From a virus (Duplodnaviria; Caudoviricetes), in the IMG/VR virus record IMGVR_UViG_3300044712_001509, positions 1,279 to 65,278 of that record: 64,000 bases of DNA, one strand, 5' to 3'. Each line of letters opens with the position of its first letter. The first letter of the stretch is position 1. The notes beneath the pieces were generated by a model. That model worked only from the letters and a program-made list of their open reading frames with translations. It was not told the DNA's origin and did no database searches. Made by a program: the position numbers and the translations under genes. Below, piece by piece: positions 4,835 through 48,704 of the stretch.

Positions 4835-5385
4835 TGTACGTCCCCGCCGCCGCCGAGTCCGCCCTCTGGGCCCTGGTCCGCCTCGGGATCCGCCGCGGCG
4901 GGCCGGACCAGCGCATCGCCGAGGCCGCCGCCGACGTCCTGCGCCCGCCGCCGCCCCCTCTCGCCCACGGCAGCGCTCAGCGGGTCTTCTGGGGGGTGGA
5001 CGCGGACGGCCTCCCGGTCCGCCCGTGGCGGGTGGACCCCGCCGACATCGTCCAGTGCGTCGCGCTGCACGGGGACGTCCCCGCTCATATCTGCGTCGCC
5101 CGCCAGGTCGCCTCGGACGCCCAGCGCACCACCGACCTAGAGCGCGGCCAGGCCTCCGACTACCCCCACTGCGTCACCGCGCGGTGCGCCCAGGGTCGCG
5201 GCATCCGCGAGGCCCTCGACCCGACCTGTCGGCCCACCTGGCGCGGCGCCGGGCCCAACGGCCGGTTCGACCGCGGGAGGCACGACGCCCCCGAGCAGCG
5301 CGAGGCCTACCAGCGCAAGGCCGCCGTCGGTCTGGTCGACGCCGTGCCATCCATCGATGAGGAGCCCCCCGAGGAGGGGGAATAG
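4834..5385 (+). CDS. Hypothetical Cys-containing protein immediately upstream of the terminases
   Basis: TGATG coupling after GGAGG; CVAL...CVARQ...CVTARCAQG. Confidence 0.6.
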   Translation: MYVPAAAESALWALVRLGIRRGGPDQRIAEAAADVLRPPPPPLAHGSAQRVFWGVDADGLPVRPWRVDPADIVQCVALHGDVPAHICVARQVASDAQRTTDLERGQASDYPHCVTARCAQGRGIREALDPTCRPTWRGAGPNGRFDRGRHDAPEQREAYQRKAAVGLVDAVPSIDEEPPEEGE

Positions 5386-7268: not shown

Positions 7269-7286
7269 GGGTGCAACCGCGCAGGG

Positions 7287-7321
7287 TTGTGCAACGCGCG
7301 CAAGCGTGCAACCCGCACCCG
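7287..7321 (+). promoter_or_regulatory. Putative late promoter, copy 1
   Basis: TTGTGC-N12-CGTGCAACCCGC-N4-GTG; same geometry at 15614, 32627 and 33246. Confidence 0.65.
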
Positions 7322-26891: not shown

Positions 26892-27362
26892 ATGGACTCC
26901 GACTACGGCGTCGACATCTCCGCGACCTCGGGACTGGACCCCAACTTCACGCTCGTGAGCGGGACGCGCGTCGTGTGCGAGGCGCTGTTCCGCCGGCTCA
27001 CCACCCCCCGCGGCGAACTCTTCTACGCCCCGAGCTACGGGAAGGACGTCCGCGAGTTCCTCAACGGTCGGGTCGACCAGCGCCGGCTCGACGCCGCGCG
27101 CGCGTCCATCGAGGCCGAGTGCCGGAAGGATGACCGGGTCGACACGGTGAAGGCGGCGCTCGCCTTCGACCCACGGACGGAGAAGCTCCGGATCCGGATC
27201 GAGGGCACCACGGCGGCCGGCCCGTTCACGCTCACCATGTCCGTCACCGCGTTCGCGGCGACGATCGAAGTGGCGCCGCTCGAGGTCGCCGCCCCCGCCG
27301 CCGCGGCCGCCACCACCGAGCCCAACACCACGATCATCTACGCGGAGGGGGGGCTCTACTGA
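26892..27362 (+). CDS. gp25/gpW-like baseplate wedge (sheath initiator)
   Basis: RRLTTPRGELFYAPSYG, ECRKDDRV. Confidence 0.85.
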   Translation: MDSDYGVDISATSGLDPNFTLVSGTRVVCEALFRRLTTPRGELFYAPSYGKDVREFLNGRVDQRRLDAARASIEAECRKDDRVDTVKAALAFDPRTEKLRIRIEGTTAAGPFTLTMSVTAFAATIEVAPLEVAAPAAAAATTEPNTTIIYAEGGLY

Positions 27363-32582: not shown

Positions 32583-32626
32583 GGGCCCACGGTAGCGAGG
32601 CGGGGGAGTCCGGGCAAGCCCCCGCC

Positions 32627-32698: not shown

Positions 32699-33211
32699 AT
32701 GCGCCGCTTCCCTGGTCTCCTCGCATTCGCGGTCGCCGCCGGCCTCTTCGCGGCCGCCTCGCTCGCCTCCCCTGCCTTCGCCGCCAGCGCGGCCGTCCCC
32801 TCGTCCACGGCGCAGTCCTCCTCGTGGAACCCGAGCCCCTCCGCTGCGACGTTCGCGCCGGACGCGATCACCACCGGCGCGCTGACCTCGGGGAACCTCG
32901 ACACGGGCACGGCCCGCGCGGTCGACTGCGAGGTCCAGAACGGCCCCTCCGCCGGCGCGCGCACCGTCCAGGCGCAGTGCTGGGATCCGACCTTCACCTC
33001 GACCGTGGGCCAGTACCCGACGACCCTCGCCGTCGCGACCGGCCAGACCGGATTCCTGCTCTTCGACCCCGCCGCGCCGGGCACGTCGCAGACGAACGTC
33101 TACGGCTCGTCGATGCTGGTGTACCCGGTCCGGCCGTGCCGCTACCTCACCGTCGGCGCGGCGGCGGCCGCCGGGCCCGCTCGCATCCTCTGCACGCTCC
33201 GGTCGCACTGA
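32699..33211 (+). CDS. Secreted beta-rich protein
   Basis: Signal peptide MRRFPGLLAFAV...SPAFA; 4 Cys; AGGA RBS. Confidence 0.7.
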   Translation: MRRFPGLLAFAVAAGLFAAASLASPAFAASAAVPSSTAQSSSWNPSPSAATFAPDAITTGALTSGNLDTGTARAVDCEVQNGPSAGARTVQAQCWDPTFTSTVGQYPTTLAVATGQTGFLLFDPAAPGTSQTNVYGSSMLVYPVRPCRYLTVGAAAAAGPARILCTLRSH

Positions 33212-33245
33212 GCGGCAAGGGCTGACGCCCGCGCGCCCGGTGGAC

Positions 33246-33280
33246 TTGCCCGGGCGCGCGCGGCGTGCCAACCGCTGACG
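33246..33280 (+). promoter_or_regulatory. Putative late promoter, copy 4 (lysis/fibre operon)
   Basis: TTGCCC-N12-CGTGCCAACCGC-N4-GTG. Confidence 0.7.
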
Positions 33281-33867
33281 TGGACGCCCCGGCCCGCACG
33301 TATCTGCCGATCGAGACGAACCCGGCGAAGCCCGGCGACTACGCGTCCGGGCGGAAGCTGACGCCCGTCGACACGATCGTCCTGCACACGACCGAGGGCG
33401 GGTCGATCGAGGGTGCAACGGAGTGGTGGGACCGCGAGGACGTCGTCGCGTCCGCGCACTTCGTCATCGACGGCAAGCGGATCGTGCAGCGGGTGGCGGA
33501 GGGCGACCGCGCCTACCACTGCGGGAACGCCGCTATGCACCTCCGGTCCATCGGGATCGAGGTCGTCGGGCACTGCGCCGATCCGCGGATGTGGACCCCG
33601 GCGGTGATGGCCCAGCTCGTCGAGCTCTGCGCCTACCTCATCGGGAACCACCCTCGCATCCCGATCCTGCACCAGGCCGGGCCCGGCATCTGCGGGCACT
33701 GCGACGTCCCCGACCCCAAGCACCAAGGGCTCTACGGCGGCGCCTCGCACCACACCGACCCCGGGCGCGGCTTTCCCTGGGACCCGTTCCTCCACGCCCT
33801 GCGCGTCGCGGTGACGCGCACCACCCCGCCCGCGGCCGGGGAGTCCGCCGCGAAGGAGACCCCATGA
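33280..33867 (+). CDS. Endolysin, N-acetylmuramoyl-L-alanine amidase (Amidase_2)
   Basis: IVLHTTEG, SAHFVI, AYHCG, SIGIE, GHCDV, HTDPG..FPW. Confidence 0.92.
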   Translation: MDAPARTYLPIETNPAKPGDYASGRKLTPVDTIVLHTTEGGSIEGATEWWDREDVVASAHFVIDGKRIVQRVAEGDRAYHCGNAAMHLRSIGIEVVGHCADPRMWTPAVMAQLVELCAYLIGNHPRIPILHQAGPGICGHCDVPDPKHQGLYGGASHHTDPGRGFPWDPFLHALRVAVTRTTPPAAGESAAKETP

Positions 33868-34736
33868 CCCCCCTCGTCGCAGTCCTGTTCGGCCCCTCGT
33901 GGAAGACCTCCCTCGCCGGCCTCCTGAGCGGCGCCGCCGTGGCGGCGGTCGCCTTCGCCCAGAAGACGGGCGGCCTCGCCTGGTACGCCATCGCTGGCGC
34001 CCTCGTCCTCGCCGGTCGCCTCCTCGGGGACTCATCGCCGGGACTGAAGGGCGGCGTCCTCGAGCTCCTCCTCGGCTCGGCGCCCACGAGTTCCGCCGTC
34101 GGCGCCCTCACGGCCATCGGGACCGCCGTCTACGGCTTCGCGCAGACCCAGAACGGCCTCGGGTGGGCGGCCGTCGCCGCCGGCGTCGCCGCGGTGCTCC
34201 GCTTCGCCAAGGTTCCGGGCGTGGACCGGCCGCAGCTCGCGGCGGTGCCGAGCGACCCGCCCAAGGGGTTCATCCTCCCCCGCGTCGAGCTCGCGGTCGC
34301 GGTCCTCATCCTCGCCCTCATGGCCGCCGCGTTCCTCGTCCTCCCGAGCCGCGCGCGCGGGCAGGAGACGCAGCCGGCCGCCGCGCCCACCGCGCCCCTC
34401 GCCATCCAGGTCACGCCGGACCTCTCGCTCCGCCTCAACGTCTCCGTGGTCGCGGGGTCCTACGACCTGACCCACCGGGCGTGGCTGGGCCAGGCGCCGA
34501 TCACGGGCCTGTACGCCCTGACGTCGAAGCGGCTCCTCGACGCGGGCGTCGCCGTCGGCGGGTCGCTCGCGTTCGACACCTCCTCGAGGCCGTCCGGCGA
34601 GCTCAACGGCGGCCTCGTCAGCCCCAAGCTCGTGATCTCGCCGGCGCTCGCGCTCCACGGCGCGGTGCTCTACGCGAGGCGGTTCGGCCCCGACGCGGCG
34701 AACCTGCTCCGCATCGCGCCCACGCTCGAGTTCTAG
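33864..34736 (+). CDS. Holin-like protein fused via an internal signal sequence to a predicted outer-membrane beta-domain
   Basis: SWKTSLAG holin-type start, four TM segments, KGFILPRVELAVAVLILAL, C-terminal LRIAPTLEF. Confidence 0.65.
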   Translation: MTPLVAVLFGPSWKTSLAGLLSGAAVAAVAFAQKTGGLAWYAIAGALVLAGRLLGDSSPGLKGGVLELLLGSAPTSSAVGALTAIGTAVYGFAQTQNGLGWAAVAAGVAAVLRFAKVPGVDRPQLAAVPSDPPKGFILPRVELAVAVLILALMAAAFLVLPSRARGQETQPAAAPTAPLAIQVTPDLSLRLNVSVVAGSYDLTHRAWLGQAPITGLYALTSKRLLDAGVAVGGSLAFDTSSRPSGELNGGLVSPKLVISPALALHGAVLYARRFGPDAANLLRIAPTLEF

Positions 34737-34739
34737 GCC

Positions 34740-35072
34740 GTGGACGCCGCCGTCGTCACCACCATCGCCAGCTCGGTTCCGGACTCCGGGGCCGCGGTCG
34801 CCATCGTCTTCGGCGTGCTGGCGGTGCTGGGCGGCGCGTTCGGCTTCCCGTGGTGGTGGGGCCCGGCGTGCAGCCTCGCCCGGGCCGCCTGGCAGGGCCG
34901 GCGTGCGCTTGCGGACGTGAAGGTCGAGCAGGCCCCGGAGCCGATCTCCGACGGCGGCGCCGCCGAGGATCGCCTCATCCGGCCCGCGCCCGCGCCGGCG
35001 CCCCACTACGAGGTGACCGACCCGCTGCGGCCGATCGAGCCCGGCGGCGGGTCGACCGGGGGGATGAGCTGA
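34740..35072 (+). CDS. Single-pass membrane protein in the lysis cassette
   Basis: AVAIVFGVLAVLGGAFGFPWWW. Confidence 0.5.
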   Translation: MDAAVVTTIASSVPDSGAAVAIVFGVLAVLGGAFGFPWWWGPACSLARAAWQGRRALADVKVEQAPEPISDGGAAEDRLIRPAPAPAPHYEVTDPLRPIEPGGGSTGGMS

Positions 35073-35470
35073 TGCCCCGCCTCCTCGCCGCCATCGTCCT
35101 GCTCGCCGGGTGCTCGAGCGCGCGCGTCGCGAGCAGGTCCGAGCTCGACCGCTCGCCGGTCGGGCAGTTCGGGATCGTGCGGCCGCCGCCCATCGGGTGC
35201 TCGGAGACGTCCGGCTCGCCCTGGAACGCCGCGCGGTGGGTCTCGATCTGGGACGGCGACCACGGCTGGGGCTACTGCTCCGTCAACGCCGTCACCCCCG
35301 ACCGCGTGCGGTGCGTCTTCGACCACTGCGAGCGCCTCGAGTCCGGCGCGTGGCGCTGCGGCGCGCCGTCCACCTTCCCCGCCTGGGCGGCGGCGGCTCC
35401 AGGGTCTCACCCCGGGGTCGGTGCGGCGAGTGGGTCGCCGCCGCCCTCTTCCTCCGCGAGGAGCCCATGA
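35072..35470 (+). CDS. Cys-rich lipoprotein
   Basis: MPRLLAAIVLLAG-C lipobox; TGATG coupling. Confidence 0.65.
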   Translation: MPRLLAAIVLLAGCSSARVASRSELDRSPVGQFGIVRPPPIGCSETSGSPWNAARWVSIWDGDHGWGYCSVNAVTPDRVRCVFDHCERLESGAWRCGAPSTFPAWAAAAPGSHPGVGAASGSPPPSSSARSP

Positions 35471-35733
35471 AGTTCAACCCGCGCTCGTTCCTGTTCGGTG
35501 TCCTCGCCGCGATCGTCCCCACCGTCGGCGCGGCCTGGGCGTTCGCCACCCTCGCCGCCGATCACGTCCTGCAGCCCCACCTCGAGGGCGCGAAGGCGCG
35601 CATCGGCGTCATGTGCACGCTCGCGGACGTCCAGAACCGGAAGCTGAAGGCGATCTGCGATCGAACCCAGGCCGCCTGCGACACGTCGATGGACGAGGCG
35701 CTGGTGGCCGCCTGCCACGAGGCCACGAAGTAG
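35467..35733 (+). CDS. Membrane-anchored protein (i-spanin or antiholin candidate)
   Basis: N-terminal TM, helical C-terminus with 4 Cys. Confidence 0.55.
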   Translation: MKFNPRSFLFGVLAAIVPTVGAAWAFATLAADHVLQPHLEGAKARIGVMCTLADVQNRKLKAICDRTQAACDTSMDEALVAACHEATK

Positions 35734-35742: not shown

Positions 35743-36081
35743 ATGGGCGCAGTCGATCTCCAGGAACTCCACGTCCGCGCGATGCGCGGCACCGCCCAGC
35801 GGCTAGGGCCTCCCGTCGCCGGCAAGGGCTTCACGCTCACGATGGGCGCCGGCGACGCCACCCAGGACCTCGAGGCCGGCGCCGTCTACCGGATCGCCAC
35901 CGGCGCGCAGCCCGCCTTCATCGGCGTCGCCGACCAGGCGACCGCGTCGAATCGCGAGTACCTCGCCGCCAACTCCGAGACGTTCTGGCAGACCCCGGCC
36001 GCCGGGACCGTGACCCTCCACTACCTGCAGGCCGGCACCGCCGGCTCGCTCTACGTCTCGAAGCACGACGACGTCGGCTGA
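35743..36081 (+). CDS. Small beta-sandwich virion protein (spike-base-like), no signal peptide
   Basis: AGGAGG RBS; VYRIAT..PAFIG...YLAANSE...GSLYVS. Confidence 0.55.
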   Translation: MGAVDLQELHVRAMRGTAQRLGPPVAGKGFTLTMGAGDATQDLEAGAVYRIATGAQPAFIGVADQATASNREYLAANSETFWQTPAAGTVTLHYLQAGTAGSLYVSKHDDVG

Positions 36082-36144
36082 CCGCTCACCCGGGCCCACG
36101 GCCCATCCCGCAGGGCGCAAGCCCGGAAGCGAAAGGAGCAGCAC

Positions 36145-36792
36145 ATGAAGCGCATCGCCCTCATCGCCATCGCCGCCGCGGCCCTCATCGGGCCCGGCCT
36201 GTCCGTCCACTTCCTCCCCGAGCCGACCGCGGACCAGCTCGTGGCTCCCTTCGCGACCATCAGCGCCAGCTTCGACGCCTACGCGGTTCCGACCGCGGGC
36301 ATGACCGACCAGGGCAAGAAGGACTACCTGGACGGCATGAACGTCACGACCAACGCCTTCGCCGTGATGTTCCTGACGAGCGCCTCGACGGCCTGGTCGG
36401 GGTCCACCACGATCGCCAGCATCTCCGGGGCGGAGGTCGCGTCCTTCGGGTCGAACGCGTCCTGCACTGGGAGCGGCTCCCCGATCGCGTGCTGCACCGG
36501 CACCGGCACCGGCAACTGCGTGTACACCGCGGGCGGCACCGGGTATCCGCTCTCCGGCCGGTCGTCCTCGATCTCGGCGAACCACGCCTGCGTGACCTGG
36601 AACAACCTCCTGTTCAGCGCGACTCCTTCCCAGGTCCGGGCCATGGCGCTCGTCAATCCGGCCACGAGTCACGTCCTGAGCATCCACTGCACGGACGGCA
36701 CGGCGAGCGGCTCGCCCTGCGCGGCGGACACCACGAACCAGGGCGGCACCCTCGGCATCACGATGCCCAGCGGCCTCAACTGCGTGAACTGA
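36145..36792 (+). CDS. Phage fibre subunit-like protein with signal peptide and Cys-rich inserts
   Basis: KKDYLDG, FAVMFLTS, EV..., YTAGG, VRAMALVN, GTLGITMPSG; MKRIALIAIAAAAL. Confidence 0.7.
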   Translation: MKRIALIAIAAAALIGPGLSVHFLPEPTADQLVAPFATISASFDAYAVPTAGMTDQGKKDYLDGMNVTTNAFAVMFLTSASTAWSGSTTIASISGAEVASFGSNASCTGSGSPIACCTGTGTGNCVYTAGGTGYPLSGRSSSISANHACVTWNNLLFSATPSQVRAMALVNPATSHVLSIHCTDGTASGSPCAADTTNQGGTLGITMPSGLNCVN

Positions 36793-36802
36793 GGCGGCCC
36801 CA

Positions 36803-36988
36803 GTGCTCAGGACCGCGCTCGTCGCGGTGGCGCTCCTCGCCGGGTGCGCCACCGCGAAGCCGCAGCATCAGGTCGCCACCATCGCCCCGGCGAGGGCAGA
36901 GGCGGTCGCGGGGCAGGTCTTCGGGCCGCCCCGCGACGTGGTGGTCAGGATTCAGCCGGCCTACGCTACCGGCGCCCAGAACCGCTGA
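36803..36988 (+). CDS. Small lipoprotein
   Basis: LRTALVAVALLAG-C lipobox; GAGG RBS. Confidence 0.55.
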   Translation: MLRTALVAVALLAGCATAKPQHQVATIAPARAEAVAGQVFGPPRDVVVRIQPAYATGAQNR

Positions 36989-36999
36989 CGGAGGACACG

Positions 37000-39852
37000 A
37001 TGCGCCGCCTCGCCCTTCTCGCGCTGGCCGCAGGGGCGGCCATCGTCGCCCTCTCGACCTCGGCGCTCCAGCCCTACAAGGCGCCGGTCGACTACCACGA
37101 CCCGACCGCCGTCTCGAACGAGCCCATCACCGTCACGACCGAGGACGGCGTGCCGGTGGCCTATCTCGCCGAGGCGCCGCTCGACCCGGCGCAGGGCGGG
37201 ACCATCTCGGTCACGCTCGGCGGCGCGGGATTCACGCGCGTCACCGGGACGCCGGCCGCGGGCCAGTACCGGATCCGAACCCAGGTGCTCCCGGGCGGTG
37301 CCTTGGAGTACATGCCGGTCCTGGTTCTCAACGCGGCCGACCTCGGCAAGACCGGGACGGCCTCGTACTGGGGCACCGGTTCCATCGTTCACCGCGGCAC
37401 GTTCCGCTCGCTCATCGGCAACGCGTGGGACCTGATGGGCGTGGCGGTGCAAACCGCCGACTGCACGACCTCGCCGCCAGCCGACCAGATCACCTACGAC
37501 CAGTGGAAGTCGGGGGTCTCCGGCCACTGGGCGTGCTGGCAGATCCCGTCCTCGAGCGGCTCCTCGACCTCCACGGTGACGGTGGCCTACGGCGCCGGGT
37601 ACGCCGGGGTCATCTCGGTCCAGGCCAACGACGCCGTGACGCTGCTCCAGGCAGCCGGGACGGGCGTGGCGGGCGCTATCACGGCGACCGCCAGCTCCGC
37701 CGGAGGTTCGAACGCGACCATCCTCGTGAGCTACGCCGCCGGCGCTGCCGGGATCGTCACGGCGGTCGTGTCGGCGTCTCGCGCGATGCCGGCGGCGACC
37801 GGAACGGGGGCCGCGGGGGTGCTCTCGACCTCGCTGGGGTTGGCGCGCACGCTCGTGGGCGCCACGGGGGCGGGGGCCGCGGGCACCATCACGGCCACGG
37901 CGAACAGCAGCGGAACCGCGCTCGCGATCCGCTCGGGCTTCCCGGTGGTCGTGAGCCAGGACACGCGGTCGGTCCCGTACACGATCACCACGGCGAGTTT
38001 CAACGCCAACGCGGGAGACACCCTCGTCGCGTTCGGCACGGCGTACACGCTCCCGGTCCTGACCGGCTCCTCGCTGCGCTGGGTGCCCCGTGCGCTCGCG
38101 CGTGCGCAGAACGACCAGGCGCGCCAGGTGGCGGTCTACACGGCGGTCGTCCCGGCCGGCGGCGTGACCGGCGAGACCATCTCATTGACGGTGCCCACCG
38201 TGCAGGAGTGGGACACCTCGCCCATCACGTCCACGACCGCGTCGGCCTCGCAGATCCAGGTCTTCGCGTTCGACAACTCGGCGGGCGTCGGGAGCGTGAA
38301 GTGGCGCGGGGACGTGGTGGCCGGCGACACGCCCGCGCTCACGATGAAGGCGAACGCTACGGGGTCGATGTTCCTCGTGGGCGGCGGGATCTGGGACATC
38401 GCGTGGACGCCAGACGCGAACACGACGCTGGTGGGGTCCGCGTTCAACGGGCACCTAGGTGTGATGCGGCGGACCGCTGCGGCGCCCGGAAACGTCACCA
38501 TCGGAGCCACTGGCACGGCCGCCTACTGGGCGCTGGCCGGCATCGAGGTTCTCCCGTCCACGGCGACGGCACCGACAAAGAAACTCCTCGTGTTGGGCGA
38601 CTCGGGGGTGGAGTCGAACAACTCCACGACCCCGTGGCCCCCGCTGGTGCAGGAGTCCCTCGGCGCAGACTGGGCGCTCTACGATGGCGGCGTGTGGTGG
38701 GCTGTCTCCCCGCACGTCCGCACGCGCTGGGCGAGCACCTGGAGCAAGGAGACGTGGGATATGGTGGTGCTGCACGTCGGTTCGAACGACGTGACCAACC
38801 ACGGCGTGCTCTACACGACCGACTGGGCAGCGGTCGCCTCGTCCATTGCGACCGCGGTCGGTCAGAACCGCTACATCGTGCAGACGATCCAGGCAACGCA
38901 GTGGTACGGGATGTCGGGGGCGGGGGCCTACGACACGGCCGACGCCGCGCAGCGCTCCAACGCGCCCTCCGGCGCGCACTTCTTCGACTGGGCGGCTGCG
39001 CTCGGGACGAGCGGCCCCACGGTGATGTCCACGTACATGTCTTCGGACGGCCAGCACTGGAACGACTCGGGCAACGCGCACATCGCGGACGAGTTTGTCA
39101 CGGAGATCAACTCGCTGATGGCGCTGCCCGCGAACCCAGTTCAGCCGGCATGGGGTGCAGCCGGTGCCGTTGCCAACGTGGACGGCTCGGGGAGCATCAG
39201 TCTGGCCAGTCCCACCGGCGTGACTGCCGGGGACATCCTCATCGCGGCCATCGGTGGGGGTTACACGTCGCTACCGCCATCCACGATCACGGACGGAAAC
39301 GGCAAGGCGTGGGCGCGCAAGGGCGCCATCAGTGGAGATGCGGGCGCCGGGATGGTCGTGTACTCGCGGCGCGCGGACGGCGGGGAAGCGTCCAGCACCA
39401 CGTTCACGGGGCTCAGCACCGCGGGTCTGGAGGGGGTGGCGTTCCGGGTCAGCGGTGTCACGGCAACAGGTGACGGGTTTGATCCTGGGTTCAACTCCAC
39501 GGGCGCCGCCCCGGGCCTCGGCTCGTTCTCGGACAAGCTGGATTTCTCTGCCTCTGCCGCAGGCGCGGTCGCGGCGGACAAGGATCTCATCGTCGTGGCC
39601 TGCGCGGTGCGGGCGACCGACAGCGGTGCTACCGGTTCCATCACCAGCGTCACCCCGCCGACGGGACCAGCGACGACCCTTGGCGCGAGCGGGTGGACTG
39701 GGAGCGCTGTCTCAGGCTTCGGCATGATCGGAATTGGCGTCTGGTATGGCACGAAGTCGGGCTCGGGCAACTCGCTGAACGCCCCGTTCTCGTGGGTGGG
39801 CCAGGGGGACGGGCCAGGTACAACCTGCGTGCAGATGGCGTTGAAGCAGTGA
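37000..39852 (+). CDS. Secreted multidomain protein with 22-aa repeats and an SGNH/GDSL hydrolase
   Basis: Signal MRRLALLALAAG; LGDS, HVGSND, DGQHWN. Confidence 0.8.
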   Translation: MRRLALLALAAGAAIVALSTSALQPYKAPVDYHDPTAVSNEPITVTTEDGVPVAYLAEAPLDPAQGGTISVTLGGAGFTRVTGTPAAGQYRIRTQVLPGGALEYMPVLVLNAADLGKTGTASYWGTGSIVHRGTFRSLIGNAWDLMGVAVQTADCTTSPPADQITYDQWKSGVSGHWACWQIPSSSGSSTSTVTVAYGAGYAGVISVQANDAVTLLQAAGTGVAGAITATASSAGGSNATILVSYAAGAAGIVTAVVSASRAMPAATGTGAAGVLSTSLGLARTLVGATGAGAAGTITATANSSGTALAIRSGFPVVVSQDTRSVPYTITTASFNANAGDTLVAFGTAYTLPVLTGSSLRWVPRALARAQNDQARQVAVYTAVVPAGGVTGETISLTVPTVQEWDTSPITSTTASASQIQVFAFDNSAGVGSVKWRGDVVAGDTPALTMKANATGSMFLVGGGIWDIAWTPDANTTLVGSAFNGHLGVMRRTAAAPGNVTIGATGTAAYWALAGIEVLPSTATAPTKKLLVLGDSGVESNNSTTPWPPLVQESLGADWALYDGGVWWAVSPHVRTRWASTWSKETWDMVVLHVGSNDVTNHGVLYTTDWAAVASSIATAVGQNRYIVQTIQATQWYGMSGAGAYDTADAAQRSNAPSGAHFFDWAAALGTSGPTVMSTYMSSDGQHWNDSGNAHIADEFVTEINSLMALPANPVQPAWGAAGAVANVDGSGSISLASPTGVTAGDILIAAIGGGYTSLPPSTITDGNGKAWARKGAISGDAGAGMVVYSRRADGGEASSTTFTGLSTAGLEGVAFRVSGVTATGDGFDPGFNSTGAAPGLGSFSDKLDFSASAAGAVAADKDLIVVACAVRATDSGATGSITSVTPPTGPATTLGASGWTGSAVSGFGMIGIGVWYGTKSGSGNSLNAPFSWVGQGDGPGTTCVQMALKQ

Positions 39853-39860
39853 GGGACGCG

Positions 39861-41336
39861 ATGCGCGCGCTCGCCACGGCTCTCCTGATCTCGTTCGCCA
39901 CGGTCGCGTCCGCCGCGCCCGCCACGGCGCACGACGAGATATGGCAGGGGTACGTCCCGGCCTTCGACGACACCACGACCGCCGTCCGGCTGGGGATGGA
40001 CCCGGCTCCGGCCGGGACCTGGGCTGGCGGCGCCTACAAGGACTCGCGCACAGTCTGGGGCACGATCGCCGGGCGGGGCCCGATGTACGTCGTGAGCCGG
40101 AAGCGCGGGTTCACGAACATGGCGCCGGCCATCGCGACGGTCGGGCCTCTCGACGCCAACGGCTACGGGCGTTCCGTGGCGCCGTTCTACGGCGCGAACA
40201 AGTGGATCGGGTCCACCTTCGCGCCTGACCAGATCAGTGAGGTGACCTACAACCCGATGTTCGACGCCGACTCGGGGAACGCTGTCCGCATGAGCGACGC
40301 CGGGTTCTACGGGTCGGCCATGTGGTACTCGAACACGAACGGCCCCTACGACCCTGGCGCCCTGGGGCAGCTTGAGTCCGGGTGGGTGGTCTGCCAGGTC
40401 TTCCGCTACAACGGCTCGACCAAGACCGTCCTCGCGCAGTTCCTCGTCAACGGCTGGCTCTACGCCTCGGACTGGACATCGTTCCTGTCGCTTCAGGTGT
40501 GGGGCCACAACCCGGTCCACCTCCGGCTCGTGCTGAAGCAGGCGAACGAGCTGGCTCTCGCCGGCGCCGGCCTCGACGATGGCACGAGCCACGGAACGCT
40601 GCCGGGGCCGGGGACGCTGCTGCCCTACGCCCCGTGGGGCTCGGGCGGCGTCTACTTTACCTATGCCGGCTCGAATCATGCGTGGGCGACGGGGGACTAC
40701 ACCACCGGCGGCGGCGGGACGGTCGGAGGCGACGGGACGCACTGGACTGGCTGGGCGAACGCGCAGGCCCCGATCACCATGCGCGACGGGTACGTGATCG
40801 TGCCCTACGGCGACCCGCAGACGATCCTCCCGCAGATCGCCTCCCCGCCCGACGACTCCGCGATCATCCCGATCGGCGACCCACTGTGGAACATCAACGG
40901 CCAACGCAGCCTCGTGGTCTGGGAGGGGACCGACTCGTCGGCCGGCGCCCTGCTCTCGGGGCAGCCCGGCATCTGGGGCGACCCGTTGACCACGAGTTCC
41001 GGACCCAACGGCGGCGTGATGAAGTTCTGGGCGCGCGACATAGCGGACCGCCTCACGGCGAGGTACGTCTCGACCGTCGGCAGCACGAAGACCATCGGCG
41101 GCTACCGCGCGCCGGGCGACACGATCACGGTCTCGGGCTGGACGGTCTCCTACCCCGACTCGATCTCCTGGCAGGCGACGACCACGGCTACCGTCTCCTC
41201 GGCCACAGCTACCGACGCTGCCACGAGCGAGTCGGCCACGGTGAGCATCCCATCGGCCTCGGGCATCACCGGAGTGCAGGACTCGCGTGTGTTCGACGGC
41301 TCCTCGTGGGCGCCGTCCTGGCCCAAGGCGCTCTGA
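39861..41336 (+). CDS. Secreted Gly/Trp/Tyr-rich beta protein of unknown function
   Basis: Signal MRALATALLISFATVASA; GAGGG RBS. Confidence 0.75.
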   Translation: MRALATALLISFATVASAAPATAHDEIWQGYVPAFDDTTTAVRLGMDPAPAGTWAGGAYKDSRTVWGTIAGRGPMYVVSRKRGFTNMAPAIATVGPLDANGYGRSVAPFYGANKWIGSTFAPDQISEVTYNPMFDADSGNAVRMSDAGFYGSAMWYSNTNGPYDPGALGQLESGWVVCQVFRYNGSTKTVLAQFLVNGWLYASDWTSFLSLQVWGHNPVHLRLVLKQANELALAGAGLDDGTSHGTLPGPGTLLPYAPWGSGGVYFTYAGSNHAWATGDYTTGGGGTVGGDGTHWTGWANAQAPITMRDGYVIVPYGDPQTILPQIASPPDDSAIIPIGDPLWNINGQRSLVVWEGTDSSAGALLSGQPGIWGDPLTTSSGPNGGVMKFWARDIADRLTARYVSTVGSTKTIGGYRAPGDTITVSGWTVSYPDSISWQATTTATVSSATATDAATSESATVSIPSASGITGVQDSRVFDGSSWAPSWPKAL

Positions 41337-41347
41337 TCGGAGGATGC

Positions 41348-44300
41348 GTGAAGCGGCTCCTCATCGCCCTGCTCCTCCTGGCTCCGGCCGCGGCGTCGGC
41401 GCAGACGACCACGCACGGGATCACGATCCCCTCGGGGCACCCGCGCATCCTGTTCTCGGACCCGACGCGGCTCGCGGCAGCGCGCGCGTGGTACGCCGCG
41501 CACCCGTTCACCCGCGACGGCGACCCGGTGTGGAAAGGCCCCTACGTCTACGGGCAGATGGCGCTTCGCTCCCTTCTCAGCCAGAACGCCGCGGACGGAT
41601 GCACCGAGGCGATCGTCTGGCTCAAGGCGTACGACATCACGAACCCGCAGCACCTCACCGCCTACAACTACCTCGGCGGACAGGACTACGTGCGGTGGGC
41701 GCTGCCCTACGGCCCGATGGTCTACGATTGGTGCTACCAGTGGATGACCCCGGCGGACCGCGCCGCCGCGATCACGATGTGGAACGCGAACCAGACCGCC
41801 GCGGAGGCGTACGACCAGCCGCTCTTTGACCTTGGCGGGATCGACTTCAACAACGGCTCCCGCGCCGGCCCGTTCGGCAACTACTACACCGGCATGGAGG
41901 CGGCGCATTGGTACTGGGCGCTGGCGTCCTACGATCCCGACCTGAACGCGACGGTGGCCGAGTCGTGGCTCCACAACGCCGCAGACCTCCGCATGGTCGG
42001 GGAGTTCGAGCCCTACGCGAACACGAGCATGGCGGGCGGCATCAACTCCGAGAGCGGCCATTACGGGCAGTACGCCCGCGACTACCGGTTGATCCCGCTG
42101 GAGTCCGCGCGGCAGATGGGGCGCGATGTCTTTGCGGAGACGCCTTGGTGGCTCGCGTCGGTGTACGCGATGGTCTACGCGGCCCCACCCGCGCAGAGCA
42201 CCCAGTACCACGGGCCGTGGGGGACCACGCCAGCATCCACGACCGCTTCATGGGACTACTTCCCGTTCGGAGACGAGGAGTTCTGGAACACGAACGACGG
42301 TGGCGGCGATCAGGCGAAGTACGCCTCGCTCGGCAACTTCATGACGTGGGCAGCGACGCGCTGGAACGGCACGAACGCGGGCGGCTTCGCTGCGCAGTTC
42401 CTCGCGTCCGTCGCGCCCAGCGCGGACTACTATCACCAAGCGTACGCCAACCTCCCGGCGGCACGCTCGTTCACGAACCTACCGCTCGACTACTACGCGA
42501 AGGGCCCGGGATTCTTCTACGGGCACTCGCACAGACCGTGGACGAGCGGCACCTCATTCGCGATCCAGATGGGATGGGGCTGGGTTGAGTCGGGGCACGG
42601 TCACGCCGACTATGGGACGTGGCAGCTCTGGCGCGGCGGTCGCTGGGTCAGCCGCGAGACGACCTACTTCGCGGGTACTGGGCTCGCGGGCTACGGCGGG
42701 TCGGGCACGGCGACGACCTTTGACACGGTCATGCACAACGGTTTGCTCGTCGGGGGCCAGGGGAGCAGCACGAGCCAGCCCGGCCGCAACCGACAGTTCC
42801 CGGTCCCGACGCGCGTCGAGTCTCAGCCGGGCTACGCCTTCGCCTCGGTGAACATCGGGCCGACCTATACGAACGTCACGAGCGCGGTTCGCGATTTCGT
42901 CTTCGTCCGCGATCTGGAGGCACTGATCATCCTCGACCGCGTGAACGCCTCGTCAGCCCTGACGCGCGCCTCGACGGTCCACTGCGAGCAGCAGTGGGCA
43001 TCCACGAGTTCCTCGCGTCGGACGTGTTCGCTCACGACCGGGACTGCCCAGACTCTCGTGGTGGACTCCCTCCTCCCGGCGGCGCCGACCTTCCGCTCCA
43101 TCTACGAGAACGGCGGCAGCGAGTCGAACCATATCGGGCAGTACCGCCTGGAGATCGAGGACAGCCCCGGCACCGCACAGTCCTACCTGCTGACCGTGGT
43201 GCAGGCCAACGGAGCGTCGCCGTTCACGCCGACGATCACCACCAACGACACGACGACCATCGTCGTCGACCTCAAGAGCGACGGCACACACCTCGTCACG
43301 TTCGCCAAGGGCATGACGAGCACGGGCGGCAGCGTCACGATCTCGGGCACGACAACGAACCTCCGCTCCGACGTCCAGGGGATGACGGTCTCGACCGACG
43401 GCGTGGTCTGGGACGGCCAGGCGCCCACCACCACGAACGTCACCGTGTCCATCGTCGGCGCCTCCGGGGCGGGCGTGGCGGGGCAGATCGTGACGCCGAA
43501 CCGCACCGCGACGCTCGTGGGCGCGACTGGCACGGGCGTGGCCGGAACGGTGACGGCGACGGCCTCCGGCAGCGGGACCGGGACGACGTGGTACGTGGGG
43601 CCCGGCCGGACCTACACCACCGTCGCCGCAGTGCAGGGTCTCGTCCAGCCCGGGGACCTCGTCCTCATCGACGGCGGGAACACCTACGGCTCGACCACGA
43701 TCACCGGCGGCGGCACGGCCGGCAACCCGGTGACCTACCGCGGCACAGGCAGTGGAGCCGGGCGCCCCACCTTCTCGGGCGGCACGAACACGATCCAGAT
43801 CGACGCCGATCACGTCGTGGTGGACAACGTCATCGTGACCGGCGGATCCTCGCGCTGCATCTTCTACACGAGCGACGACGTCACGGTGCGCAACTCGCAC
43901 ATCACCGCCTGCCCGCAGCACGGCATCCTGTCCTCGGACCTCGGCTCGGGCTCGGCCGTGGTCGAGTACAACGAGATCGACCACTGCGGCTCGGGCTCGA
44001 CGCGCCACCCCGTGTACGTCACCTCCGACCAGTCGGCGCACCCGGGCGCGGTCTTCACCTTCAGGTACAACTACACGCACGATCAGAACGGCGGCCACAC
44101 GCTCAAGACGCGCGCCCAGCGCACCGAGATCCTCTACAACTGGATGGAGGGCTCGTTCTACCGCGACCTCGAGTGCGTCGGCGCCGACACCCAAGGCACG
44201 GGGGCGGTGAAGCTCTACCCCCAGCACTGCGAGCTCATCGGCAACGTGATCCGCAAGACGACGGCGAACGTGCAGGCGGGGCTCCGCTTCGGCACCGACG

Positions 44301-45895
44301 GCACGAGCGGCAGCAACGGCCAGGTCCGCCTCGTGAACAACACGATCCTACGGGAAGCCGGGACGGGGCCGACCATCTACCTGATGGGCGACACCACGGG
44401 CGGGCTGGAGTCCATCGAGCTGCACAACAACGTCTTCTACGCGACGAACGGCACGCCCGACGTGCTCTCCGACGTCGACCTCGGCGCGTACTGGGTCGCG
44501 GGTCGTCAGGTCGCCGGGTCGAACAACTGGACGGAGACGGGGAGCACCGAGGTCCCGAGCGAGTGGACCGGCACGGTCACGGGTGCCGACCCCGGGTTCA
44601 CGACCTACCTGTCGAACATGACGCCGACCTCGGGGAGCGCGCTGCGCGACGCGGGCGGCTCCGCCACATCCTACCCGGCGGGCCACCAGTTCCCCTCGCC
44701 GCTCACGACGCTGCCGCAGTACATGCCCGCTACGCAGACCGTCGTCGCCTCCGCCGCGGCGCGGCCGACGAGCGGGACCATCGACATCGGCGCGTTCGAG
44801 TACAACGCCGGCGGCGGCACGAACGTGACCGCGAGCCCGGCCGGCGCAACGGGGACGGGCGTCGCTGGCGTCCTATCGTCCGCGGGCGGCGCGACGCGCA
44901 CCCTGGCCGTCGCCGCGGGGGCGGGGGCTTCGGGGACGCTCGTCACCGCGGCGGGTGCGACGAGCGCCATCGCCTCGGCCGCCGGGGACGGCACCGCGGG
45001 CCAACTCTCCGTCGTGGCCCAGGGCACCGCCGCCTGGTCGGGCCCTGTGATCCCGCGCGGGGCCCGCGTCGGGCTGTCCTACCTCGCCGGTCCCTGGTCC
45101 GCCCCGATCCCGGTCAGCTCGAGCCCCGCCGGCGCGGTCGGCACCGCGGTGGCGGGCGTCATCACCAGCTCCGCCGGCGCCGTCTCGGCGCTCGCGGGCG
45201 CGAGCTCCACGGGCGCGGCGGGCGTCATCGTCGCCGCCGTCTCGGCGCTCGCCCCCCTCGTGGCCGCGGCGGGCGTCGGCACGGCGGGCGCCCTCTCCAC
45301 CTCCGTCGGGATCGTCGCGACGCCGGCCGGGGCTTCCGCGGCGGGGCTCGCCGGCATCATCACGGCGGTCGGCAACACGGTCGGCGGATCCACCGCTGTT
45401 CTCTCCGGTGCGTCGGCGACCGGGGCGGCGGCGTCGGTGCTCTCGGCGGCCGGGGCGCTCAACTCTGTGGCGGGCGCCTCTACGACCGGGGCGGCATCAA
45501 CGATTGCCTCGGTGGCCAGTGCTGTTGCCCCGATCGCCGGCGCAGGTGGAGTCGGCTCGGCGGGGGTCCTGACCAGCATCAGCTCGGCCGTCGCCACCGT
45601 GGTTGGAGCGTCCGCTCCGGGCTACGCTGGAACGGTGACGACCACCGCGAGTGGCCCGACCGGCGCAGTGACGGTCAGCATCGCCGCCGCGATCTCCGTG
45701 GGGGTCGCTGGACAGGCGGTAACCGCCGCCGGAGCCGTCGTGACCCTGGCTGGCGCCGCCGGAACCGGGTATGCCGCAGCGCTGCCCAGCCCTTGGGGCG
45801 ACCTCGACCACGCGCCGAGGTTCATCGTCAAGACGCCGCGCCCGGGCATCACCGTGCCGGTCCCGCGCCCGGCCATCACCGTCGAAGGGAGGTAG
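41348..45895 (+). CDS. Secreted 1515-aa fibre scaffold with heparinase II/III-like lyase and beta-helix domains
   Basis: Signal (M)KRLLIALLLLAPAAASA; HPRILF, GHGHAD, HNGLL; WYVGPGRTY, DIGAFEY; about 15 repeats of 22 aa. Confidence 0.85.
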   Translation: MKRLLIALLLLAPAAASAQTTTHGITIPSGHPRILFSDPTRLAAARAWYAAHPFTRDGDPVWKGPYVYGQMALRSLLSQNAADGCTEAIVWLKAYDITNPQHLTAYNYLGGQDYVRWALPYGPMVYDWCYQWMTPADRAAAITMWNANQTAAEAYDQPLFDLGGIDFNNGSRAGPFGNYYTGMEAAHWYWALASYDPDLNATVAESWLHNAADLRMVGEFEPYANTSMAGGINSESGHYGQYARDYRLIPLESARQMGRDVFAETPWWLASVYAMVYAAPPAQSTQYHGPWGTTPASTTASWDYFPFGDEEFWNTNDGGGDQAKYASLGNFMTWAATRWNGTNAGGFAAQFLASVAPSADYYHQAYANLPAARSFTNLPLDYYAKGPGFFYGHSHRPWTSGTSFAIQMGWGWVESGHGHADYGTWQLWRGGRWVSRETTYFAGTGLAGYGGSGTATTFDTVMHNGLLVGGQGSSTSQPGRNRQFPVPTRVESQPGYAFASVNIGPTYTNVTSAVRDFVFVRDLEALIILDRVNASSALTRASTVHCEQQWASTSSSRRTCSLTTGTAQTLVVDSLLPAAPTFRSIYENGGSESNHIGQYRLEIEDSPGTAQSYLLTVVQANGASPFTPTITTNDTTTIVVDLKSDGTHLVTFAKGMTSTGGSVTISGTTTNLRSDVQGMTVSTDGVVWDGQAPTTTNVTVSIVGASGAGVAGQIVTPNRTATLVGATGTGVAGTVTATASGSGTGTTWYVGPGRTYTTVAAVQGLVQPGDLVLIDGGNTYGSTTITGGGTAGNPVTYRGTGSGAGRPTFSGGTNTIQIDADHVVVDNVIVTGGSSRCIFYTSDDVTVRNSHITACPQHGILSSDLGSGSAVVEYNEIDHCGSGSTRHPVYVTSDQSAHPGAVFTFRYNYTHDQNGGHTLKTRAQRTEILYNWMEGSFYRDLECVGADTQGTGAVKLYPQHCELIGNVIRKTTANVQAGLRFGTDGTSGSNGQVRLVNNTILREAGTGPTIYLMGDTTGGLESIELHNNVFYATNGTPDVLSDVDLGAYWVAGRQVAGSNNWTETGSTEVPSEWTGTVTGADPGFTTYLSNMTPTSGSALRDAGGSATSYPAGHQFPSPLTTLPQYMPATQTVVASAAARPTSGTIDIGAFEYNAGGGTNVTASPAGATGTGVAGVLSSAGGATRTLAVAAGAGASGTLVTAAGATSAIASAAGDGTAGQLSVVAQGTAAWSGPVIPRGARVGLSYLAGPWSAPIPVSSSPAGAVGTAVAGVITSSAGAVSALAGASSTGAAGVIVAAVSALAPLVAAAGVGTAGALSTSVGIVATPAGASAAGLAGIITAVGNTVGGSTAVLSGASATGAAASVLSAAGALNSVAGASTTGAASTIASVASAVAPIAGAGGVGSAGVLTSISSAVATVVGASAPGYAGTVTTTASGPTGAVTVSIAAAISVGVAGQAVTAAGAVVTLAGAAGTGYAAALPSPWGDLDHAPRFIVKTPRPGITVPVPRPAITVEGR

Positions 45896-45900
45896 CCTCC

Positions 45901-46416
45901 ATGCGCCGTCTCGTCATCGCCGCCGTGCTCGCCCTCGCCGCCAACGCGGCCCGGGCCGACACCTACGTCTTCCCGACCCTTCGCATCGCCCGGGGCTACC
46001 AGGGGCCGGTCGTCGTCGACGTCCAGTGGTCGGACGGCACCCCGCGGCCGGCCGCCGCCATCGTCGGGGTCCTGAACGTCTACCGCTCGAGTTCGACGTC
46101 GGGGGCGACCGGGGCCCTGCTCCTGACCAAGGACATCGACCCCGCCGGCGGGTCCAACCCCACGAACCGGATGGTGATCTCCATCGCCTCGACCGACCTG
46201 ACGGCGCCCGGGACCTACTACGCCGAGATCCAGCTCGCGGAGGCGCTCGTCACCGACGTCCTGCACGGTCTCGTGACGGTGGAAGGGCAGCGGGTACCGG
46301 CGGGCGTCGGGCTCCTCGATGATCCGGGGCCGGTGCGCGAGGCGGTAGCGTTCGCGACCCCGCCCGAGGTTGAGCGGCGGTGGCGCGGCGGAGGTCCCAC
46401 CGGCGGGATGGGGTGA
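45901..46416 (+). CDS. BppU-like adaptor domain with signal peptide
   Basis: MRRLVIAAVLALAANAARA; DLTAPGTYYAEIQL...HGLVTV; GGAGG RBS. Confidence 0.65.
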   Translation: MRRLVIAAVLALAANAARADTYVFPTLRIARGYQGPVVVDVQWSDGTPRPAAAIVGVLNVYRSSSTSGATGALLLTKDIDPAGGSNPTNRMVISIASTDLTAPGTYYAEIQLAEALVTDVLHGLVTVEGQRVPAGVGLLDDPGPVREAVAFATPPEVERRWRGGGPTGGMG

Positions 46417-47522: not shown

Positions 47523-48704
47523 TCAGCGCCGGCGCGGCTTCAGCGCCACCACCGCGGCGCGCGCGGCGCGGGCGCTCAGCTTCCCGACCTCGGCGCAGAG
47601 CTTCGCCCACTCCATCTCCGTGTACGCGCCCAGGACGTCGCCCGGGCGGCCGTGGCTGGCCCACCGGAGCGTCTCCCGGTCCGCGCCGTCGCTCAGGCAG
47701 AGGGAGATCCACGTCCGGCGGAGGTCGTGGACCCGACGCGGCCGCAGGCCCAGCGCGGCAAGGGCGCGGTGCAGCCGGCGCAGCGTGTGCCCCTTGGAGC
47801 GCATCCTGGGCTCCGGGGAGCCCCGCAGGCCGCGGAGGGGTAGCACGAGGTCGTCCGGGCCCGGCGCGCGCCCCAGGAACCGCTCCCAGCCGGTCAGGCG
47901 CCACGCCGCGAGCACCGCCGCGAGGGCGGGGAGCACGGGGACCTGGCGCGTCTGGCCGGTCTTGGTGCGCCCGCGCCGGTTCGACCGGGCGATGAGGAGC
48001 GACCCGAGGGGCTCCCGCTCGGCGTCGTAGTGCCGCCACCGCAGCGCGGCGAGCTCGCCGTGACGGAGGCCGGCGAGGGCGAGGAGGTGCCAGGCCACCC
48101 GGGAATCGGCCGGCCCGCCGGCGCCGAGGAGCCGCTCGACCTCGGCCCGCTGGAGCACCGCCGAGGCGCGCCACTCCGGGTCCACGTCCTCGATCGCGGG
48201 GAGGTGCGCCGGACGGGACAGGATCGCCGGGCTCTGGGGGATGAGGCCCCGCACCGCGGCGTCCCGGCACATGGCGTGGACGGTGGCGTACCTGTTGCGG
48301 ATCGTCCGCGCGGCCGCGCCCGCCGCGCGCCAGGCGTCCACCAGCTCGAGGAGGTGGCGCGGCTCGAGCCGGCGCAGGGGCATGGACCCGATGACCGGCA
48401 GGACGTGGAGGGTGAGGTGGATCCGGTCGTAGGTGGGGTCCCGGCGCGTCTCGAGCCAGGTCTCCGCCCACCGCTCCACCGTCAGGGGGGCGTCGGCGGC
48501 TCCGGCGGCCTCTTCCGCCTGGAGCTGGGAGCGGAGCGCGGCGAGCATCCGGCCGGCGAGCTCTCGGCCCTCGGGCGTGTCGGGGTAGGGGGTCGCCTTG
48601 GAGCGCCAGCGACCGGCGACGCGGACGGAGAGGTGCAGGCGCGTTCGGCCGGCCGGGAGGTAGACCGACCCGGACCACTCAGCGCGGGGCATGTCGGGAC
48701 CCAT
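47523..48704 (-). CDS. int: Tyrosine integrase
   Basis: GLRHGE, TKTG, HDLRRT, SHG...AY. Confidence 0.95.
   Translation of the reverse strand: MGPDMPRAEWSGSVYLPAGRTRLHLSVRVAGRWRSKATPYPDTPEGRELAGRMLAALRSQLQAEEAAGAADAPLTVERWAETWLETRRDPTYDRIHLTLHVLPVIGSMPLRRLEPRHLLELVDAWRAAGAAARTIRNRYATVHAMCRDAAVRGLIPQSPAILSRPAHLPAIEDVDPEWRASAVLQRAEVERLLGAGGPADSRVAWHLLALAGLRHGELAALRWRHYDAEREPLGSLLIARSNRRGRTKTGQTRQVPVLPALAAVLAAWRLTGWERFLGRAPGPDDLVLPLRGLRGSPEPRMRSKGHTLRRLHRALAALGLRPRRVHDLRRTWISLCLSDGADRETLRWASHGRPGDVLGAYTEMEWAKLCAEVGKLSARAARAAVVALKPRRR

Follow-up and report, generated by a model that had tools for sequence, protein, structure and literature searches.

Downstream of the lysis genes in a 64,000-nucleotide stretch of phage DNA (hereafter the window; bases 1279-65278 of the 65,278-base virus record IMGVR_UViG_3300044712_001509), we found a block of genes at 36145-46416 whose predicted products resemble the parts of a chain-like phage fibre, in which small subunits (beads) sit on a repeat-bearing partner (rope), and which open with predicted export signals. 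We regard it as possible, with a probability of roughly 0.47, that this block encodes an exported derivative of a bead-and-rope fibre with enzymes set in its ropes, which would be assembled in the periplasm and would act as a free or envelope-bound depolymerase complex. A previous sequence-only reading of the window had proposed that exported fibre parts dock on virions at or after lysis, possibly through the signal-less product of the gene at 35743, or alternatively that they build a capsid-independent filament. The predicted export and the fibre ancestry in that reading were retained, while virion docking and the role of the 35743 protein were not. The capsid-independent, polysaccharide-degrading filament fits the results better than docking does.

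The virus record has direct terminal repeats and is rated complete. As the window represents a complete phage record with its own late genes, the genes of the block are phage genes and not host flanks. All seven genes described by the sequence-only reading were found in the region 35743-46416, downstream of the lysis genes and with the block in a single orientation. The gaps between successive genes of this region were 9, 63, 10, 11, 8, 11 and 5 nucleotides, and GGAGG-like ribosome sites were located 5-9 nucleotides 5' of the block gene starts. These observations support one block of leader-bearing genes with an operon-like layout that is shared with the lysis genes.

Six consecutive genes (36145-46416) have good ribosome sites and begin with N-termini predicted to be signal peptides or those of lipoproteins. 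The leaders were called with an in-house heuristic consisting of a basic n-region, a hydrophobic core of 9-14 residues, and small residues at positions -3 and -1 or a lipobox. This pattern was found in the genes at 37000, 39861, 41348 and 45901, and the gene at 36803, which had been described as a lipoprotein gene lying among the others, indeed carries a lipobox (LLAG↓C). Clear small-x-small sites were present in three leaders, namely ASA↓A (39861), ASA↓Q (41348) and ARA↓D (45901); the leader of 36145, in which no AxA site was seen, may be cleaved or may serve as a signal anchor. The heuristic and the GGAGG-like sites agree with the five co-oriented genes with basic-hydrophobic leaders and good ribosome sites, three of them with AxA sites, that had been reported before. 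In the whole window, the heuristic flagged 10 of 86 composition-supported open reading frames (ORFs), including five module genes and two antisense artefacts. The ORFs at 45901 and 32699 lie outside this set, and their leaders were checked by hand. The first 22 codons of the leaders showed a coding-type composition, with a G+C fraction at third codon positions (GC3) of 0.91-1.0. With their short and very hydrophobic cores, the module leaders look Sec-like, and Tat export is possible; three of the six leaders open with MRR or MLR, but arginine is favoured at the G+C content of this window (~72%), so these starts do not separate Sec from Tat.

A related complete phage of 66,501 bases, referred to here as G001, was recovered via the 45901 protein and was the only related phage found; two genome-collection scans, with gpJ and with the sheath, and one metagenome scan returned no relatives. 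Comparison of the two phages revealed identities of 69% for the sheath, 81% for gpJ, 82% for the N-terminal part of gpI and 80% for the endolysin, and the other lysis-cassette genes of G001 were 54-90% identical to their window counterparts. After its lysis genes, G001 contains genes for a lipoprotein, a 224-residue protein, a 760-residue heparinase-like protein, a 1012-residue protein and a 174-residue homologue of the 45901 product. All of these bear leaders, and the idea that signal peptides would co-occur at homologous loci is borne out at this one. The 98-residue lipoprotein of G001 occupies the position of P0003, the 61-residue lipoprotein of the window (36803..36988, + strand; Ala at +2), and is not homologous to it. 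The enzyme content also differs between the two phages, and the flanking lysis genes and the last protein of the block, P0007, are conserved. In G001, the heuristic flagged 7 of 82 ORFs; five were the counterpart module genes (for the lipoprotein, the 224-residue bead, the 760-residue lyase, the 1012-residue esterase and the 174-residue protein), one encodes a membrane protein of the lysis cassette, and the last is an antisense artefact.

The first leader-bearing gene (36145..36792, + strand) encodes P0002, a bead-like small fibre subunit of 215 residues (MKRIALIAIAAAALIGPG...) with a predicted signal peptide or anchor, a domain that begins near residue 52, and eight cysteines. A phmmer search with P0002 yielded 18 non-self proteins, with relatives at E-values of 3e-9 to 1e-4. 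Six of the 18 matches were inspected, and the 12 remaining ones align mainly over a Cys/Gly/Thr-rich stretch; P0014, a low-complexity repeat protein, was dropped as a bead relative. Four relatives match phrog_644, namely P0020 (E 2.5e-17), P0011 (1.1e-12), P0013 (2.7e-5) and P0023 (1e-4). Full-length P0011, P0013 and P0023 bear leaders and P0020 is leaderless, and P0021 bears a leader and has no PHROG match. In cultured phages, the phrog_644 family is found in tail modules: the member in Gordonia phage Sixama is annotated as a minor tail protein, and members adjoin 'tail fiber' genes in Roseobacter phage CRP-902 and in ct7L0027 and a 'tail protein' gene in CcrBL9.

The fold of P0002 points in the same direction. 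A VIA search of 48,161 PDB chains with the AlphaFold model of P0002 revealed only five chains at a Z-score of at least 5, all of which are phage virion parts; the matches included the KP1 baseplate (Z 9.0), the HFTV1 tail (7.1), the Bxb1 tail tip (6.6) and the Sf14 neck (6.0). Superposition with the GP4 fibre I chain 8jou_a gave a Z-score of 6.5 and a root mean square deviation (rmsd) of 3.4 over 111 aligned residues, for a model with a predicted local distance difference test (pLDDT) score of 58. A Foldseek search of the PDB with the same model returned nothing at E ≤ 0.001. The bead at the same position in G001 matches PF23140 (Podophage GP4 fiber I protein gp80) with an E-value of 5.6e-14 and 53 bits against a cut-off of 27, and this Gp80 domain begins directly after the predicted cleavage site. 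The intermediates that lead to phrog_644, a tail-associated phage family, and the likeness of the modelled fold to GP4 fibre I support the earlier assignment of 36145 to a small phage fibre subunit. Other searches for the bead added little: a word search with P0002 and viral-contig scans with P0002, P0005 and P0013 found no relative, the viral-contig scan with P0011 found one short fragment, and tblastn searches of cultured phages with P0002 and with the bead of G001 gave no match. PDB sequence searches with the bead family, P0020, P0004, P0005 and the G001 bead gave nothing useful.

The cysteine content of the bead family follows the leaders. All six leader-bearing proteins of the family contain 6-12 cysteines, always in an even number, and both leaderless members contain one or two. 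This pattern is independent of the leader heuristic, and it is as expected for disulfide formation outside the cytoplasm.

Rope-like repeats are found in two large proteins of the block, each of which also carries a predicted enzyme. P0004 (950 residues, MRRLALLALAAGAAIVALSTSA; 37000..39852, + strand) consists of a predicted signal peptide, an N-terminal domain, rope-like repeats, a domain without assignment, a putative SGNH/GDSL esterase domain and a C-terminal domain. Its repeats of 22 residues, about 4-5 units, occupy residues 205-310 (37612..37929, + strand), and the esterase domain spans residues 532-698 (38593..39093, + strand). The GDSL Pfam scores of this domain are below the gathering cut-offs (25.7 versus 32.9 and 21.3 versus 23.6), and the SGNH catalytic motifs are intact, with GDSG at 533, GSND at 594 and DGQH at 683. 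Residues 310-710 are 52% identical to the 1012-residue protein of G001, which has the same SGNH blocks. For the N-terminal domain, the Atlas leads were viral and 'minor tail protein' clusters at 0.84-0.85, which is below the trust level.

P0006 (1515 residues, GTG start, predicted cleavage site ASA↓Q; 41348..45895, + strand) is composed, in order, of a signal peptide, a heparinase II/III-like lyase, two rope repeats, a right-handed β-helix, about 14 rope repeats and a conserved C-terminal tail. Its Hepar_II_III_C domain (residues 415-572; 42590..43063, + strand) matches PF07940 with an E-value of 4.6e-6 and 26.8 bits against a cut-off of 24, which places P0006 among the predicted heparinase II/III-like polysaccharide lyases, and residues 1-695 are 32% identical to the 760-residue protein of G001. 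The first rope segment comprises two units at residues 700-745 (43445..43582, + strand; GATGTGVAG at 43520), and the second comprises about 14 units of 22 residues at residues 1160-1480 (44825..45787, + strand). Between them, the putative β-helix segment (residues 809-913; 43772..44086, + strand) scores 23.5 bits with PF13229, just below the cut-off of 25.9, and shows a weak match to the alginate lyase 7o84 (E 0.0068). The C-terminal tail (DLDHAPRFIVKTPRPGIT...; 45788..45892, + strand) aligns with the C-terminus of the 1012-residue protein of G001, which itself ends with 20-residue repeats (lag-20 autocorrelation 1.18 versus a shuffle maximum of 0.43) and this P0006-like tail.

The sequence-only reading had noted G/A/T/V repeats in both proteins. 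This holds for P0006, with a lag-22 autocorrelation of 0.97 against a shuffle maximum of 0.54 and a windowed scan value of 2.0, and the signal is weaker for P0004. Among the composition-supported ORFs of both phages, the windowed periodicity threshold was reached only by the large proteins with predicted export. The nine-residue GATGTGVAG-type pattern occurs twice in P0006 and three times in CRP-902 gp53; a six-frame translation of the window contains no other copy. The G/A/T/V repeats match the published rope docking repeats in period, and those of one bead-carrying cultured phage in motif as well. By analogy, the 22-residue repeats would be docking sites for the bead. Co-folding of a P0002 dimer with two P0006 repeats gave a score of 0.07 against a mark of 0.32, and this result was used neither for nor against binding.

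The last gene of the block (45901..46416, + strand) encodes P0007, a 171-residue protein with a predicted signal peptide (ARA↓D), an immunoglobulin (Ig)-like domain and a disordered tail that is conserved. P0007 and its G001 homologue share 74% identity, and the P0007 family has three members among 5.8 billion clusters, with G001 as the one viral locus. The model of P0007 is an Ig-like sandwich. Its fold matches included the Douge baseplate (Z 9.2), TP901-1 BppU (4v96_AA, 7.2; 3uh8_A, 6.6) and GP4 8jou_D (6.4), and a BFVD search gave 158 matches at E ≤ 0.001, including minor tail proteins, with BppU-named entries at ranks 31, 32 and 39. However, 315 PDB chains match the model at Z-scores of at least 5; because the Ig fold is this common, the BppU likeness is consistent but not specific. 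Of the earlier proposal of a BppU-like adaptor at 45901, the modelled BppU_N-like Ig fold is consistent with it; P0007 gave no Pfam match.

We also examined the association of beads and ropes in cultured phages, using six self-chosen loci among 100 records with a match. In CRP-902, gp53 is annotated as hypothetical; it contains roughly eight repeats of 20 residues with GVAGTGAIG, and the phrog_644 gene gp51 lies two genes away (gp53/gp51 region, 4452-5378 and 6001-6423 of locus L011). This pair appears to be a bead-and-rope fibre that escaped annotation in a cultured phage. In Sixama, gp105 adjoins the phrog_644 gene gp104 and contains 24-residue repeats (0.70 versus a shuffle maximum of 0.14), which makes it a candidate rope in an actinophage (6288-8039 of locus L010). 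HTVC023P is doubtful, as gp59 peaks at lag 17 and the repeat region of gp61 is Gly-rich and of low complexity. In the three other loci (CcrBL9, MiniFlayer and ct7L0027), a rope-like neighbour is weak or absent.

A promoter-like motif, CTTG-N15-CGTGCMAMCCGC, is present in three exact copies in the window (15613, 32626 and 33245) and was absent from 100 shuffles. The copies stand before late gene blocks, and a variant precedes the portal gene, at 7287. The copy at 33245..33275 (+ strand) is the last one 5' of the lysis genes and the module; the sequence-only reading had matched it to the motifs of the head genes. Between 33275 and 46416, we found no further copy of the motif and no plus-strand terminator-like site; the promoter scan covered sigma-70-type sites. 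The motif may function as a late promoter, and it is a reasonable inference that the block would be expressed late, together with the lysis genes.

The fibre of phage GP4 was reportedly described by Zheng et al. in 2023. According to the available part of a paper on podophages GP4, VP1 and A1002 (PMC13730344), these phages carry chain-like fibres in which dimers of bead monomers of 140-171 residues join successive rope sites by β-sheet augmentation. In A1002, as described there, the rope is the fibre-dock domain of gp39, the nozzle-rope protein, which holds 11 dimers on ~270 residues and terminates in an Ig-like domain; in GP4, the rope is a separate protein. No density was seen for the first ~30 residues of the A1002 monomer gp41, and the authors suggest their proteolytic removal. 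The term 'signal peptide' is not present in the available text of that paper (PMC13730344). As far as that text describes GP4 (gp80, PDB 8JOU), VP1 (gp11) and A1002 (gp40/gp41), the proteins of the block share with them putative small beads of ~140-170 residues, a partner with tandem ~20-24-residue sites, which would serve for docking here as well, an Ig-like domain at the rope end, and a bead gene that adjoins the rope gene. In contrast to those systems, all parts are predicted here to bear leaders, the bead is Cys-rich, and the ropes are set in large enzymes and not in a nozzle or a dedicated rope protein. In addition, the tail of the window phage is contractile, a virion anchor was not recognised, and the binding of bead to rope is presumed from the likeness. 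Chain-like fibres have already been published, and what appears to be new in these sequences is a putative leader-bearing bead-and-rope fibre with enzymes in its ropes.

Phage tailspikes such as P22 gp9 and G7C gp63.1 are β-helix lyases or hydrolases or SGNH deacetylases that act against surface glycans. Virion-borne tailspikes lack a signal peptide, assemble within the cytoplasm and carry N-terminal virion-binding anchors, and in the textbook view the assembly of tailed phages is wholly cytoplasmic. The block resembles P22 gp9 and G7C gp63.1 in its predicted polysaccharide-cutting β-helix and SGNH enzymes; leaders occur only on the proteins described here. A likeness in terms of export is WceF of Pantoea stewartii, which the available part of its report presents as a Tat-exported, tailspike-like exopolysaccharide depolymerase of bacterial origin that trims the cell's own exopolysaccharide (PMC7949094). 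In both cases, a phage-fibre-type fold would be sent outside the cytoplasm against the polysaccharide of the cell. WceF differs, as described in the same text, in that it is encoded by a chromosomal polysaccharide-synthesis cluster gene, forms a single trimeric β-helix without beads or ropes, and is not phage-encoded. In the literature searched on exported phage fibres and depolymerases, we found no leader-bearing bead-and-rope fibre and no enzyme-carrying ropes.

Based on these comparisons, we propose the following scheme. The genes of the block would be transcribed with the lysis genes from the promoter-like motif at 33245, and the signal peptides, Sec-type in appearance and possibly Tat, would take every product across the inner membrane. 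The Cys-rich bead P0002 would then fold in the oxidising periplasm and, by analogy with GP4 and A1002, dock in dimeric form on the 22-residue units that P0004 and P0006 contain. The resulting bead arrays may form multivalent glycan-binding scaffolds for the SGNH esterase of P0004 and for the lyase and β-helix of P0006. The Ig-like P0007 and the C-terminal tail of P0006 may cap or tether the assembly, and the small lipoprotein P0003 may anchor it or block a receptor. Such a complex would attack envelope or matrix polysaccharide from within the infected cell and, after lysis, could remain as a free or debris-bound agent that destroys receptors and clears slime, so that progeny would escape trapping.

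Several points weigh against this scheme. Every recognisable non-enzymatic part of the block is of virion ancestry, and the export of the module products is a prediction of the heuristic. P0002 itself gave no direct Pfam or PHROG match, with no PF23140 at E ≤ 0.1 and no phrog_644, and its model, built from an 8-row alignment with a pLDDT of 58, is of low confidence. A profile comparison of the P0002 family with the Gp80-like protein of G001 aligned only the leaders, so the kinship of the two beads is one of fold and position only. The lag-22 autocorrelation peak of P0004 (0.72; windowed scan 1.0) falls within the shuffle range, and a clear periodic neighbour of the bead gene was seen in two of the six cultured loci (Sixama gp105 and CRP-902 gp53). 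The model of P0007 is also of low confidence (pLDDT 55), and the conservation of this protein (74%) is close to that of gpJ and gpI (81-82%), which would also fit virion docking.

The last of these points bears on a rival explanation in which the exported bead-and-rope enzymes are true virion appendages that mature and gain their disulfides in the periplasm and join completed particles once the holin and lysis bring the compartments together, with attachment through P0007 and/or the conserved C-terminal tail of P0006. We consider this explanation unlikely, and we would equally hesitate to assume the two-compartment assembly of host-recognition gear that it implies, snapping onto virions at lysis via P0007 and the C-terminal tail, which seems rather improbable; if true, it would be a route not described for tailed phages. 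To our knowledge, a depolymerase aids adsorption only when it is on the particle, which speaks for docking. So does the fact that P0002 has its best fold matches among virion components and that P0007 matches baseplate or adaptor domains (Douge, TP901-1 BppU and GP4 8jou_D), and all known beads and ropes, as described in the available part of the A1002 paper, are virion parts (PMC13730344). Against it, the P0007 fold is a common one, no tailed-phage two-compartment assembly was found in the literature searched, and no virion-side partner was found. In particular, the 35743 gene product, P0001 (112 residues, without a hydrophobic N-terminus; 35743..36081, + strand), is not conserved as part of the module: it has no homologue in G001, and its best family signal is sub-threshold (SU10_adaptor, E 0.034, 15 bits versus a cut-off of 27), so that the proposal of docking via this protein is left without support. 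No rope repeats or bead were found in any leaderless gene of the window phage or of G001, and the block follows the lysis genes outside the tail module, which has its own fibre-position gene. The restriction of beads and ropes to leader-bearing genes, the post-lysis position, this separate fibre-position gene and the unsupported 35743 protein argue against virion docking, and none of our results supports docking at or after lysis.

The block could also be lysogenic-conversion cargo, in which prophage-expressed enzymes, the lipoprotein and the Ig-like protein remodel the surface polysaccharide of the host by deacetylation and trimming and thereby block superinfection or change biofilm behaviour. 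This is improbable in our judgement, as no promoter-like site in the sigma-70-type scan and no plus-strand terminator-like site parts the block from the lysis genes, the gaps being 5-63 nucleotides, and we know of no bead-and-rope architecture among conversion genes. The position of the block between the lysis genes and an integrase-sized gene (47523-48704, minus strand) is nevertheless a usual cargo site, and the content varies between the window phage and G001. Leader-bearing genes of Porphyromonas phages are read as envelope modifiers in the available text of another report (PMC10367356), and WceF, as described above, is exported by a bacterium to trim its own exopolysaccharide (PMC7949094). 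Very improbable, finally, is that nothing is exported, with true starts downstream or with N-termini that serve another role, and that the proteins are ordinary side fibres assembled in the cytoplasm. The heuristic basis of the leader calls and the missing AxA site of P0002 would favour this explanation. However, the leaders are backed by good ribosome sites, and five of the six begin 5-11 nucleotides after the stop of the gene before; their codons are of coding type in composition, the cysteine-rich members of the bead family are those with a leader, and the Gp80 domain of G001 starts directly after the predicted cleavage site. The leaders are kept in G001, whose mature parts share only 32-52% identity with those of the window, and this persistence of leaders beside diverging mature parts argues that they are used.

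The remaining gene of the block encodes P0005 (491 residues; 39861..41336, + strand), a predicted exported protein with the cleavage site ASA↓A that is absent from G001. Family and PDB sequence searches with P0005 gave no match, and its Atlas leads were all below 0.9. An alternative in-frame start 12 nucleotides 5' of 39861 (39849-39861) overlaps the stop of the 950-residue gene, and the signal peptide is kept with either start.

The lysis cassette lies at 33265..35733 (+ strand) and is 54-90% identical to that of G001. It is composed of an Amidase_2 endolysin (33265-33867, + strand), a 290-residue multi-transmembrane, β-rich ORF (33864-34736, + strand), a transmembrane protein (34740-35072, + strand), a Cys-rich lipoprotein of 133 residues (35072-35470, + strand; 77% identical in G001) and a second transmembrane protein (35467-35733, + strand). 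The 33864-34736 ORF has several hydrophobic helices and a β-rich C-terminal half that ends in F and is 54% identical in G001, and the 35072-35470 lipoprotein is unlike short o-spanins. Upstream of the endolysin, the gene at 32699-33211 (+ strand), preceded at 32626 by a late promoter-like motif of its own, encodes a further predicted exported protein of 170 residues (MRRFPGLL...AFA↓A) without a family match. We also observed that the 34740-35072 protein and P0007 end alike (GGGSTGGMS and GGGPTGGMG, respectively) and that both are kept in G001 (58000-58335 and 65346-65870). A common periplasmic partner of the two proteins via the GGGxTGGM end is possible; the explanation that this end merely encodes the ribosome site of the next gene may hold for 34740, where motif and site overlap, and was set aside for P0007, which has no downstream gene on the same strand.

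The window phage is a contractile-tail phage with a complete genome of 65 kb. Its late genes include a tail sheath, recognised by sequence matches, and two genes assigned by position, one for the tube and a large one for the tape measure. The P2-type baseplate includes a gp25/W-like gene (26853), a Baseplate_J gene (29196) and a Tail_P2_I gene (30321), and the 264-residue fibre-position gene of the tail module is located at 31069. Between the gp25/W-like and Baseplate_J genes, the gene at 27362-29137 (+ strand) encodes a 591-residue protein; Myxococcus phage Mx4 has a 487-residue gene in that place, and BLAST found no counterpart at that place in G001. The sequence-only reading had described the tailspike and the tail fibre of this genome as leaderless; the tailspike identity of the 27362 product was not confirmed, its only match being a PHROG of unknown function. 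The nearest cultured sheaths were those of Meiothermus phages (46%), Mx4 (43%) and a Thermus phage (40%). In its annotation table, Mx4 shows a similar gene run after the sheath, with one putative baseplate assembly protein, and no block of the kind described here, which counts against virion docking.

In the window phage, every recognisable part of a fibre type, that is, the bead, the rope repeats and the Ig cap, bears a predicted export signal. If export is true, fibre parts would have been turned into secreted multivalent scaffolds for polysaccharide-degrading enzymes, a device for release or for the destruction of receptors, or else virions would gain appendages that are matured outside the cytoplasm. 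Either option would change how depolymerase and fibre genes in metagenomic phages are read, and modular, extracellularly stable enzyme scaffolds would then be on offer.

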